DNA of 64,000 nt from Longimicrobiales bacterium (GTDB lineage: Bacteria; Gemmatimonadota; Gemmatimonadetes; Longimicrobiales; Gaopeijiaceae), in NCBI GenBank assembly GCA_963664435.2, contig CAXXKM010000003.1, positions 352,001 to 416,000 of the forward strand. The letters are read 5' to 3'. The stretch's first letter is position 1. Each line of letters begins with the position of its first letter. Positions 16,001-19,000 of this stretch are shown here, piece after piece. Made by a program: the position numbers.

Positions 16001-19000
16001 GAACGGCAACCATGGTCGTGCGGGCGGCCACCCGATCGGGATGGGCCGCCACGGGGGGACGGGGGGCGACGCCCCCGCCCGCGCAATCCACCGGAGCGCG
16101 GGTCTGTTGGGGATCGAAGGGGCAACGTCCCTCGCCAGCCCGAATGTATTACTTCGGGTAGGCTGGCTTGTGCGCCTAACGGTGCTCCAAGCCAGCCCTG
16201 CGGCCGCCCCGCAAGAGACGCTCCCGCGAGCCGCCCGAGAAGGCGGTGGCCGGGCTGTCGCGGGCAAGCTCCTCAGGCCTCTCGGTTGTCGACCGCACGG
16301 ACGGCGGGAGGCAACGGGCAACCCGTCACTTCTTTGCGACGGCGGCGCTCCGAGCCGCGCACCGATTTCACCCTACTCCCTCCTCGGAGACCCGGGGGCT
16401 CGTCGGTCCTGGGCGATCCTACGGCCGTAGGTTTTTCGAAGACCAGTCCGGCGCGCCGCCTCTGGAGGGTCACCGGGAAGGTGACGGGCTTCCGCTATCC
16501 GACAGCGGTGCGCCGGACTGAGTGAAGGCCTACGTGGTCACTCGGCCCTGGAAGTAGCAGAACCCGCCGGCGTTGGTCCAGAACGTGATGTCCGTCAGCC
16601 GATTGGAATTCCACTTGACGTACCGCACTGCCAAGCTGCTCGTGTTGGTGTCCGGGTCGTAGGTCCAAGGGGAACCGGAATGGTCACCGTACCTGCTCCA
16701 CCGCGTTCCCGCGATGTAGTAGCAGGCGTTCGTGTTGGTCCCAGTTCTGCCGTCAATGCGTTTGCAGTCGCCCCCGGACGCGACGCCGACGCCATTGTTG
16801 CCGGGGGGACTCGCGTTCGTGAAGTAGACGCGGAAGTGATGGCCGTGGCTGGCGGTCCGCCCCGGCACCGTCACGTTCAGATCACCGAGGAGAGTGTTGG
16901 TCAGGTCGCGGTCCAGCGACACTTCGCAGCTCCCAGCCTTGGCGTCGGCGGCGGTCTGCGTCGCGGCGAGCCTCTCGCCCTCGACGGGCGTGGCGTTCTG
17001 GTCGGCGGGGATCGCCTCGGTCGGCATGTCGGCGCACGAGGACAGCGCCACGGCGGACAGGGCACAGAGGATGGTCTTCTTCATCGCTTCTCTCCTTGGG
17101 TCGGGGGGTGTTTGAAGTGGTTGATGTCGGATAGGTGAGCCCATCGGGCATCCCTTGACACGAAAATCAGGCGGAACGTGTCGCCGGGACCCAATCCGCT
17201 GGGGATCAGCGCCCAGTCGTCGGGCACCACGGTGGCGTTCTGCTGCCGGGCCTGCATGGCCATGGCGTTGGCTGCGACGGGGAGCGGCACGTCGGCCAAG
17301 GACAGCTCGGCTTCGTCGGCGAACGGCGCGGCGGTCGGGATCTCGCCGCACGAGACGCCTGCAAGGCCAGCCAAGAGGAACGGGAACGCCCGAAGCGGGC
17401 GGCGCTCCGCTAGCGGCGGAGCCGGTTCCGTGGTTGGAAGGGTGCCGCAGGCGTCGCCGCGGCGGAAGGAATCAGGCGGAGCGGCTAGAAGCCGAAGGCG
17501 CTTCCATCGAGACGTACGACAGGCTCGGCTCGGCTCGGCTCGGCTCGGCTCGGCTCGGCTCGGCTCGGCTCGGCTCGGCTCGGCTCGGCTCGGCTCGGCT
17601 CGGCTCGGCTCGGCTCGGCTCGGCTCGGCTCGGCTCGGCTCGGCTCGGCTCTTAACGGTGCTGCGTAATCGATACCCATGGCCATGTCAACTCCCTCCGC
17701 TACCATCGGCTCCTCAGGACCATGAAAGATAACCGACCGTTCCCGCCGGGAGCAAACTACTCCCCCGGGTGACCGGCGGAGTTCCGGAGAAAGCGGCCGC
17801 TCCCGAATCGGGCGGCGCGTTTGGGTTGGGCTAGTGGCCAGCGCCGCCTCGGCGACCTCCGTCCATCGACACGCGGAGCATGTCCCGGTTATCGGCGGTG
17901 CAAGTGTCCCGGAACGGCGAGTCCCGCGCAGTATGGGCGGTGCCGTTCGCCTCGGGAGCGACGAGGGAGTCGTCCGCGTCGCCAACGCCCCGAATCCCCT
18001 CGGATCCGTGTCGGGCGGCTCCCTCGATTTCCCGTCAAACGATTCCGGCTTTCCGGTCATTCCGGCACGATCCAGCAAGATCCAGCACAACGGCAGAAAG
18101 GGCGGATCATGCAGTCCTGTATGACTTTAGATGATTCCCTGCCGTGATTCTGGCCTCTGGCGTTCCGCCGACGCGGCGGATCGACCTCGCGGTAGGTGCC
18201 GTGGGCGGTCACGTGACCGTCCTCGACCTCCAGGCAAATCGAGTAGCGCCCGCCTACGCGCAGATCGACATCCACCTCCACACCCGCGCTCGGATCGGGA
18301 TGCGTCCAGCGTTCCACTTTCTCTCTGCCGGTCCAGGCCGCGAAGACCTGCTCGGGCGTTGCCGGGATGGTGCTGAGAAGGTGCAGGGATGTCGAGTTGC
18401 GACTCATGGAACTCGCTCTGTGGTGTTGCATAGGATTCCGGGGCTCAGTTCGTGAGGCGGGCCAGACGATACGCCAGACGAGCCGACCTGGAGGTACGCT
18501 TCGACCCCAGCCGCGGCAAGGGAAGCCATGGGTTGCTCTACCTCGGAGAGCATCGCACGGTCGTAAAGCGCGGCGAACTGCGCCGGGGCACGTTTCGAGC
18601 AATGCTGAAGCAGCTGGATGTCCGGGAGGAGGACTTGTGATGCGGTACGCCTATCCATGTGAGATGACCCCTGAGGCGGACGGCGGGTACTCTGTCTCGT
18701 TTCCGGACGTGCCGGAAGCCTTGACCTGCGGCGACGATCAGGTCGAAGCACTGGCTATGGCGGAAGACGCGCTGGCGGTTGCGCTTGGGGCCTACGTTCG
18801 TGCCCGGGAGGACATCCCGACGCCGGGACCTCTGCTGCCTGGGCAGGTCATGGTTGCGGTACCGTCGGCGGTGGCGGCCAAGCTCGCGACGTAGCCGCCT
18901 ACCGCAGAAAAACGCTCTTGGGGATGAACCCCGAGACGACCTGGGTGATGTCCACCACCTCGTTGATGCGGAAGTCCACCGCTATGCTCGCCAGCGAGAG

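Follow-up and report, generated by a model that had tools for sequence, protein, structure and literature searches.

Repeat-driven phase variation has been documented mainly in pathogens. Three described systems come closest to the locus reported here. The opa genes of Neisseria carry CTCTT pentamer repeats within the region coding for the signal sequence (PMC13183285), pil1 and pil3 of Streptococcus gallolyticus combine phase variation of a leader peptide containing GCAGA repeats with attenuation (PMC3894217), and AGAT repeats upstream of the uspA2 ORF of Moraxella catarrhalis lead to graded transcription (PMC7302503). In a 64,000-nt stretch of a Longimicrobiales genome (the window), a (GAGCC)26 tract on the minus strand (17522..17651) is read as an AEPSR repeat in every frame and determines the downstream frame. 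Judging from its sequence, we put at about 0.78 the probability that this locus represents one copy of a simple-sequence contingency cassette that is portable and would undergo opa-like frameshift phase variation.

As far as opa is described in the source (PMC13183285), both systems place a pure pentanucleotide tract in the 5' end of the sequence that codes for a surface protein, have one phase of three in frame and several loci per genome, and exchange modules between loci. Unlike in opa, GAGCC yields a hydrophilic AEPSR repeat 10-90 residues before the hydrophobic core and not inside it, one cassette precedes cargoes that are not related to each other (fn3, cadherin, Ig, LRR, Lcl and small lipoproteins) in at least five phyla of bacteria that are mostly uncultured, and part of the leader is taken up by an off-spaced promoter-like box. 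Moreover, the direct cargo in the window has been cut short, and ATGA links a second gene to it. With pil1/pil3, as presented in PMC3894217, the locus shares a leader ORF led by a ribosome-binding site (RBS), which holds the pentamer tract and whose stop moves with the number of units, followed by a surface gene with its own RBS. Gut loci read in the GGCTC direction match this design fully, and an intrinsic terminator is present in two of them (L167, L175). The window differs in that no intrinsic terminator was found between tract and gene (minus strand, 17521 to 17084), that ON would be one phase of three instead of two, and that a transcriptional gate, if any, would need Rho polarity. The common feature with uspA2, according to the account in PMC7302503, is a multi-base repeat just before a surface-protein gene; there the tract lies outside the ORF, whereas here it is part of an open frame led by a Shine-Dalgarno sequence, often without a later start codon.

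The preliminary description had reported four pure GAGCC tracts, and an array search of the genome found exactly these, with 23.0, 18.0, 22.4 and 26.0 units; the window tract has period 5, 26.0 copies and 100% matches. The next-longest perfect 5-mer arrays genome-wide have 4.0 units, none has 5-17 units, and further GAGCC runs of at least 3 units are absent from the whole genome. Four long pure tracts without intermediates are thus far beyond chance. As in opa-type loci, the window tract is long and pure with a unit length that is not a multiple of 3. Flanks of the window locus (C3b) and its paralogue C2 are diverged by ~9-12%, yet both tracts are 100% pure and differ in length (26 vs 18 units); assembled contigs of four sequencing runs, matched on the repeat-free flank, contain both paralogues. 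The three loci reported for a genome of the same genus (G161), with the same upstream box and 32, 43 and 18 units, were likewise recovered. Alleles that are otherwise identical differ in unit number, again as in opa: L148 and L150 have 32 vs 43 units with flanks identical over 547 + 1285 nt (1832), L330 and L341 have 12.6 vs 10.6 units with flanks identical over 568 + 1470 nt (2038). The upstream part of L148 is of the window type (6 mismatches per 100 nt) and its downstream part of the type of another locus in our genome, C3a (3 per 100), while L337 and L340 share the downstream part and differ upstream; module exchange falls exactly at the tract.

The leader coding stretch before the window tract (17652..17685, minus strand) begins with an ATG at 17685, with further in-frame ATGs at 17679 and 17706. 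The ATG at 17679 is kept in all seven same-clade copies without indel or stop, and codons 3-5 of the leader show only third-position changes among them. The Shine-Dalgarno-like sequence GGAGGGAG of the leader (17691..17698, minus) is weaker in the C2 copy. Depending on phase, the leader frame would stop at +35, +48 or +439 after the tract. We reproduced the phase arithmetic: with 26 units the frame of the window locus has 66 aa and with 25 it has 199 (the earlier 73 and 206 count the same frame from an ATG 7 codons upstream), C2 gives 57 and 189 (61 and 193 from an ATG 4 codons upstream) and C3a gives 48 and 345 as before. In silico unit changes place the early stops of the two OFF phases at 17472..17487 on the minus strand, with TAG 17487-17485 at 26 units and TGA 17474-17472 at 24 or 27. 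At 26 units the leader ends 11 codons past the tract, and the window copy is predicted to be OFF. C1 had been described as lacking a long ORF in every phase; 24 units would nevertheless give it a candidate ON phase, with the leader ending 7 nt short of the GTG that starts an Ig-repeat lipoprotein of 638 aa. A C13 tract in the same genome has the same position ahead of another Ig-repeat lipoprotein.

The putative ON frame (25 units) comprises 146 codons (17081..17521, minus) with an R/P-rich linker, a lipoprotein-type signal at 17404-17348, the only such signal in the linker ORF, and a relic adhesin head at ~17251-17111; its TGA overlaps the next ATG. The previously described 97-aa ORF does overlap the lipoprotein gene by ATGA, but it is the tail of the frame running through the tract and not a gene of its own. 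Between tract and signal the ON frame contains no ATG, GTG or TTG. The leader ATG lies 28-34 nt upstream of the tract, and in one frame a signal peptide follows 40-58 codons after it, which by sequence places the tract between the start codon and the mature exported protein, as in opa. Residues 91-137 of the ON frame share 47% identity with the N-terminal domain of the L046 protein (E 2e-10, pairwise), an fn3/cadherin protein of at least 999 aa downstream of a tract; there are seven longer relatives, five of them with fn3. A profile built from post-tract peptides outside Gemmatimonadota scored 9.3 bits with the ON frame of the window, 8.2 with that of C2 and 14.8 with L152, compared to -3.5 and -4.7 bits for the other frames of the window and a null 99th percentile of 6.9. 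With a profile from a hand-picked Gamma/Alpha subset, the window frame reached 4.6 bits, below the null 99th percentile of 5.7. This homology to adhesin N-termini, in the frame chosen by the profile from other phyla, supports the slipped-strand frame switching proposed in the preliminary description. For the ON frame, dN/dS (0.50 vs 0.94 and 1.24; Fisher p=0.08) is no more than suggestive of purifying selection.

The cassette extends far beyond one family, and loci of this design are present in at least five phyla. Viral contigs yielded 27 tracts, most of them lacking the cassette. We surveyed 44 tracts from 10 genomes of five phyla that were picked for having a box-type tract; loci inside one genome are not independent. 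A frame of at least 300 codons is open from the tract in 39/44, and an open frame with a signal-type hydrophobic stretch follows in 37/44, compared to 0/44 in reverse orientation and 5.6% of random positions. Among these 37 cassettes, 24 have no ATG before the hydrophobic stretch, 11 have no ATG, GTG or TTG, and 13 have an ATG. A leader ATG with Shine-Dalgarno sequence was found in 15 of 19 dereplicated cassettes (3.8 in shuffles). Twelve cassettes are fused, three are joined by ATGA, 20 are off and two have no leader ATG; these counts would fit one phase in three, and an untranslated tract would give the same fused fraction. Downstream cargo domains include fn3, cadherin, Big, Calx-beta, PKD, LRR and Lcl_C. 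In the 120 nt after the tract, C exceeds G in 42/44 loci and in all four loci of our genome, which also encodes Rho.

The cassette would thus be ordered promoter, RBS, leader of ~10 codons, (GAGCC)n and conserved R/P-rich linker, the latter forming an extended N-terminus on a surface protein that is exported. The frame would shift whenever a 5-nt unit is gained or lost by slipped-strand mispairing. In one phase of three, the leader would be fused to the signal peptide or end on the ATG of the gene; in the remaining two, translation would stop within a few dozen codons, inside a C-rich stretch. Very probably, one unit more or less would switch the gene randomly between on and off. The tract, its three phases, the differing lengths of copies that otherwise match and the lack of another start are read from the sequence; we infer that slippage is the cause, that the leader is translated and that expression is ON or OFF. 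In the window, the original adhesin has decayed to its first ~47 residues, with a small lipoprotein gene put behind it via ATGA. The weakest step is that the phase would also gate this lipoprotein, either through translational coupling or through Rho polarity on a linker left untranslated; here we regard the chances as evenly balanced.

The lipoprotein (184 aa; 16530..17084, minus) belongs to no known family, is variable in its mature part and has its own Shine-Dalgarno sequence AAGGAG (17092..17097, minus). No Pfam family scored above cut-off (LPAM_1 only below), a search with the protein returned six matches including itself, an Atlas search gave none, and relatives were absent from a sample of 200 family genomes that did not contain G161. 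Its low-confidence model (pLDDT 47) is all-beta and has no PDB fold match at E<=0.001; the fold is probably a beta-sandwich. Long fn3-like matches were set aside as they rest on summed weak repeats, and positive selection was rejected (dN/dS 0.6-0.9 among three copies, never >1). It is possible, if somewhat unlikely, that the window copy is a decayed relic from which the lipoprotein is expressed whatever the tract phase. The adhesin head cut after ~47 residues, the lipoprotein's own Shine-Dalgarno sequence and the missing intrinsic terminator would agree with this. An open path from tract to downstream start also arises in 27% (window), 39% (C3a) and 72% (C1) of shuffles and withstands 1787 of 2170 single indels, and coupling geometry is therefore weak evidence. 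Compensated frameshifts in the linkers of L097 and L152 were discarded as proof that selection keeps a path open for ribosomes because they are weak under the shuffle and indel null; in L152, a 1-nt insertion alters the linker peptide after the lipobox. On the other hand, the tract has remained 100% pure between diverged flanks, and the unit of tract, linker and lipoprotein persists in three copies in two species. The linker contains no sigma-70-like site, and its 437 nt of untranslated C-rich RNA should be polar in a Rho-bearing cell. Were the window copy a relic, this would bear on its own output, and the cassette could still act as a phase switch elsewhere.

The promoter-like elements allow a second alternative. 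The preliminary description placed a TTGACA-N17-TACG box before the ATG; instead, the ATG sits within the box (17655..17690, minus), which consists of TTGACA (17690-17685), 24 nt, CACCGT (17660-17655) and 3 nt before the tract. TTGAC precedes 22/101 tracts across taxa (0-2 per ~100 control windows), and of 19 TTGAC loci left after dereplication, 18 have YAnnnT in the last 14 nt before the tract (2-4 of 19 control windows). TTGAC is kept in two different leader reading frames, which points to a feature at the DNA level; the hexamers are perfect in G170 (TTGACA and TATAAT), and in gut loci such boxes face the tract from both sides. The box could accordingly be a working promoter, with transcription starting in the first repeat units and the tract, as a repeat in the untranslated region, tuning mRNA level or stability in a graded, uspA2-like manner and not modulo 3. 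Several loci with an ATG directly behind the tract, and the 13/37 with an ATG before the hydrophobic stretch, would suit such a model. We consider it improbable. The conserved -10-like half of the box in the window lies 24 nt from TTGACA, and box spacers of 15-25 nt are >=19 in 29/37 cassettes and 17 in none, whereas TTGAC[AT]...YAnnnT pairs of the genome itself are most frequent at spacings of 17-18 (32 and 40 vs 3-14). TACG is altered in L149 through a synonymous Tyr change. In the window, a Shine-Dalgarno-led frame crosses the tract; in its ON frame and in 11/37 loci no start codon lies between tract and signal, so that a box-driven transcript could not yield the protein. A candidate for the true promoter is P1 (TTGCTC-N18-TATCTT; 17726..17755, minus), which lies upstream of the leader start, ranks first there among promoters of canonical spacing (p=0.02, 200 shuffles) and has a similar counterpart at C3a (p=0.015). 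P1 falls below the 9/12 threshold of the consensus promoter scan, and a canonical promoter upstream of the leader at p<=0.05 was found in only 9/37 cassettes. A MerR-like dyad in the box spacer was rejected (mean stem 3.7 vs 3.5 in shuffles, p=0.12, 33 cassettes).

That the tracts are selfish or neutral microsatellites, or recombination pads for swapping modules, with no part in switching, appears more improbable still. Modules are indeed swapped exactly at the tract (L148; L337/L340), and the genome scan turned up many tracts, most of them actinobacterial, that lack every feature of the cassette. Neutral repeats would not explain the fixed position between leader ATG and signal peptide, the one-sided orientation (37/44 vs 0/44) and a cargo that is nearly always a surface protein. 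There is a negligible chance that the tract is a structured RNA or an array bound by an RNA-binding regulator, for instance TRAP, whose sites are GAG repeats with 2-nt spacers: GAGCC fits the TRAP consensus and 26 units fold in silico (-56.6 kcal/mol), but the host lacks TRAP (MtrB; no PF02081 (TrpBP) match in the 96% complete genome, with a positive B. subtilis control), lengths range from 7.8 to 68 units, the cargo is unrelated to tryptophan, and no Rfam family matches at gathering score within 15400-18900.

The claim that all loci are bounded by integrases needs revision. A tyrosine integrase lies downstream of the window locus (14152..15474, minus; PF00589, E 1.5e-21) and a HicA/HicB-like toxin-antitoxin pair upstream (18452..18894, plus; HicA below and HicB_lk above cut-off). 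Tyrosine integrases are found ~3 kb from C3a and C3b and ~17 kb from C1, but none within 170 kb of C2 (serine recombinases being outside the search), which adjoins a relaxase and MobC. When the 1158 ORFs of 52 loci were compared all-against-all by BLASTP, only surface-protein clusters and same-clade flanks emerged, and a common neighbour gene (reverse transcriptase, recombinase or regulator) was discarded.

Beyond frameshift switching, a wider proposal is doubtful at present: the cassette may be a self-contained module for diversity that is exchanged horizontally in host-associated (probably sponge) microbiomes, common to at least five phyla, situated before as many as ten or more adhesins in one genome and reshuffled among them when tracts recombine. 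Its purpose-built off-spaced TTGACA...TATAAT box, directly adjacent to the repeat, would engage RNA polymerase, acting either as a promoter that is non-productive or as a sigma-dependent pause, and would so drive slippage or couple polymerase and leader ribosome. If so, this would be a phase-variation locus with built-in rate control. One repeat unit and cassette before fn3, cadherin, Ig and LRR proteins in many uncultured bacteria without close relationship would imply that these symbionts vary their surface combinatorially, ten loci giving about a thousand ON/OFF states, and that the switch moves from phylum to phylum. The conserved box is an element testable in a reporter. Unit counts can be read from existing long reads, and selection of surface states inside the host would hence be measurable without culture. 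Gene callers mis-start or split such adhesins; ON products would bear up to ~110 AEPSR residues ahead of the signal peptide, a feature that speaks against the switch.

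The array at 17522-17651 consists of 26.0 perfect copies of GGCTC, read as GAGCC on the minus strand, and is one of exactly four such arrays in the 4.5-Mb, 68% GC genome (23.0, 18.0, 22.4 and 26.0 units at loci C1, C2, C3a and C3b, the last being the window copy). Genome-wide, the remaining perfect 5-mer arrays do not exceed 4.0 units, and no further GAGCC run of three or more units was found. The preliminary description had reported these four pure arrays, and its table of phases by unit number was reproduced on recount. At present unit numbers all four loci are OFF. L097 and L090, loci labelled Longimicrobiales and Gemmatimonadota, align with the modules of C3a and C1, which makes a Gemmatimonadota host probable, as far as mobile DNA can show. 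A 737-nt contig of the tract's flank is present in one run labelled sponge metagenome. The genome also holds 41 tyrosine-integrase matches, many similar in length.

A weak candidate canonical promoter, TTGCTC-N18-TATCTT, lies at 17755-17726 on the minus strand (p=0.02 against shuffles). The leader shows a Shine-Dalgarno (SD)-like GGAGGGAG, then TTGACA, then in-frame ATGs at 17685 and 17679 (minus strand); an ATG had been placed after the promoter-like box, and both in fact sit within it. The second ATG is retained in 7/7 same-clade copies without indel or stop, and leader codons 3-5 vary at third positions only. Stops of the three frames fall +35, +48 and +439 past the tract. The long frame comprises 146 codons, and its stop overlaps the start of the 184-aa lipoprotein gene as ATGA. 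Its residues 40-58 form a lipoprotein-type signal, ahead of which this frame contains no ATG, GTG or TTG. Farther on, 47 residues share 47% identity with the N-terminal domain of a large fn3/cadherin protein that follows a tract in L046, a locus outside this genome, and the adhesin-head residues have seven longer relatives. Since the long frame carries a start-less signal and an adhesin-like head and ends in ATGA, the 97-aa ORF once regarded as a separate gene is rather the tail of a tract-through frame, an adhesin relic. A tract of 26 units leaves the leader outside this ON frame. The genome also carries C-terminal fragments of this lipoprotein family at C2:139736-139867 and C3:60870-61001; the two are identical and share 70% identity with the window protein.

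We consider it roughly 78% probable that a translated leader has its frame set by slipped-strand changes in unit number. The sequences themselves show the cassette geometry (leader ATG, tract, linker, signal-type stretch) and the length polymorphism; from these we infer slippage, translation of the leader and ON/OFF output. The frame switching of the earlier phase-variation reading is supported, with its box placement and separate ORF corrected. In the ON state the window copy would directly yield a 199-aa precursor of a short lipoprotein, and either coupling at the ATGA or Rho polarity would be needed to gate the 184-aa gene. In favor of such gating, Rho is encoded in the genome, the post-tract RNA is C-rich (skew 0.18-0.38 at the four loci versus a genome 95th percentile of 0.21), and no internal promoter was found between tract and gene. 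Against it, the lipoprotein gene has its own SD, and an open path arose by chance in 27% of shuffles and survived 1787 of 2170 indels. Rho polarity after a repeat frameshift has a precedent in meningococcal siaD, and extended signal peptides have one in autotransporters. The window locus would be opa-like in its working, with a pil1-like option (PMC13183285, PMC3894217). A pil1-type attenuator was considered and rejected for this locus.

At locus C1 of the genome, a 24-unit tract would stop the leader 7 nt short of a 638-aa Ig-repeat lipoprotein gene, behind which a 1425-aa LRR protein is encoded. The related L090 has a phase that at present closes in an ATGA overlap. At C3a one frame fuses to a 180-aa gene and another encodes a 36-aa signal-like relic, which leaves the putative ON frame ambiguous.

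Length polymorphism was evident between loci of other genomes. L148 and L150 have 32 versus 43 units between identical flanks (547 nt upstream, 1285 nt downstream), L330 and L341 12.6 versus 10.6 (568 and 1470 nt), and L332 and L338 20.8 versus 12.8 with 1429 nt downstream in common. L148 joins a window-type upstream part to a C3a-type downstream part, the junction being exactly the tract. Box-type tracts, adjoining TTGAC...YAnnnT, exceeded the rest in length (median 17.8, n=20, versus 10.6, n=72; p=0.011), a comparison confounded by assembly type. With a profile of 35 post-tract peptides from non-Gemmatimonadota loci (null of 3000: 99th percentile 6.9, top 12.3), the window ON frame scored 9.3 bits, C2 8.2 and L152 14.8, the remaining window frames -3.5 and -4.7. 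With a hand-picked subset of 13 sequences the window frame stayed at 4.6, under the 99th percentile of its null (5.7), and L152 reached 12.5. These scores give moderate support to a common origin of the linker. In the L046 region (2969-3036) a (CCGAA)n run passes into (CCGAG)n behind a TTGACG-N20-TACACT box, which suggests that the unit itself can change.

The tract occurs in 3/150 family genomes and the upstream module in 2/18 of the same genus. Scanning a single genome for each species yielded at least 115 stretches. Ten genomes with a box-type locus were searched whole; they hold at least 44 loci, as the pattern misses some tracts, with 1-10 per genome and 7.8-68 units, labelled Gammaproteobacteria, Alphaproteobacteria, Acidobacteriota, Entotheonella and Gemmatimonadota. 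L083, a Nitrospirales locus, adds a fifth phylum. We take Entotheonella and several other named hosts to be sponge symbionts. A frame of at least 300 codons opened from the tract in 39/44 loci, together with a hydrophobic stretch (Kyte-Doolittle heuristic, not a signal-peptide predictor) in 37/44, compared with 0/44 in reverse and 5.6% of random positions; p-values of these counts overstate, because the genomes had been chosen for carrying the feature and their loci are related. Ahead of the stretch, 24 of the 37 loci lack ATG and 11 lack ATG, GTG and TTG alike. A leader ATG with SD was open into the tract in 15/19 cassettes (null mean 3.8), and the 37 comprise 12 fused, 3 ATGA, 20 off and 2 without leader. 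Post-tract C skew was positive in 42/44 loci. Among 41 frames scanned, fn3, cadherin, Big, Calx-beta, PKD, LRR, CARDB and Lcl_C dominate; nine lack a Pfam family, and several non-cassette loci gave transporters. The weight of the finding lies in this cross-phylum, multi-locus cassette and its off-spaced box. In the open-access literature, where supplements of repeat surveys could list the unit, we found no description of GAGCC/AEPSR tracts, nor any report that sponge symbionts or Gemmatimonadota use repeat-based phase variation.

Among the matches listed, 22/101 full-flank loci have TTGAC 20-48 nt ahead of the GAGCC-oriented tract, versus 2/101, 1/103, 1/103 and 0/79 in windows further upstream; in 8/104 it faces the tract from the opposite side. 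Of the 92 dereplicated loci among these matches, 18 of the 19 with TTGAC have YAnnnT within the last 14 nt (2-4/19 in six control windows; 27/73 in loci without TTGAC). Spacers in a separate, hand-chosen and non-redundant set of 37 cassettes span 15-25 nt, nine at 20 and none at 17, whereas ordinary TTGAC[AT]...YAnnnT pairs of the genome peak at 17-18. In another genome (G170), perfect hexamers stand 20 nt apart within the leader frame. Because TTGAC falls in two different reading frames of the leader, it is not peptide-driven. The box spacer showed no excess of dyads. The box is a candidate for a second promoter that needs an activator, for a sigma-dependent pause linking polymerase to ribosome, or for a non-productive promoter raising slippage. 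Promoter strength affects opa switching. In L080, L189, L214 and L066, box and tract with a 16-nt spacer precede Lcl_C-domain secreted proteins; L080 belongs to the cultured Thiobaca trueperi, a possible test organism.

Gut metagenomes contain a different version. At least 120 stretches were found; among them one element predominates, which has 6-11 units and identical flanks of 40 nt, and a sister type reaches 16. In these (GGCTC)n loci (L167:2031-2087, L175 and about 70 more; 6-16 units) a strong SD precedes a leader that reads in the GGCTC direction. Among the matches listed, 74 had enough flank; in 30 of them the leader stops 2-7 nt past the tract, in 43 it stops 120-152 nt past it and in one 45 nt past it. 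Long leaders cross a hairpin with U-run, a predicted intrinsic terminator (roughly -26 to -29 kcal/mol for each 70-nt window), and tract and hairpin precede GLUG-motif surface proteins. On both sides, promoter-like TTGAC-N17 boxes are oriented towards the tract. These loci agree with the leader-peptide attenuator of S. gallolyticus pil1 (PMC3894217). A MalT/LuxR regulator lies upstream in L167.

Further repeats were observed. In Saccharibacillus (L039, L053, L062, L065, L140) the tract stands directly behind a duplicated promoter-like unit, and no long signal-peptide frame was seen at L039. In Moraxella lacunata (L143) a 16-unit tract is apparently within a coding frame. Identical C13 tracts in a duplicated region of the genome (C2:134982-134994 and C3:65743-65755), 19 nt past an ATG, precede an Ig-repeat lipoprotein frame of at least 666 codons, out of frame at present; they are a candidate second, homopolymer-type phase switch. 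A C12 run (window 40617-40628, minus strand) lies 4 nt ahead of the ATG of a long ORF, and a similar C14 run precedes an ATG at C2:1024999.
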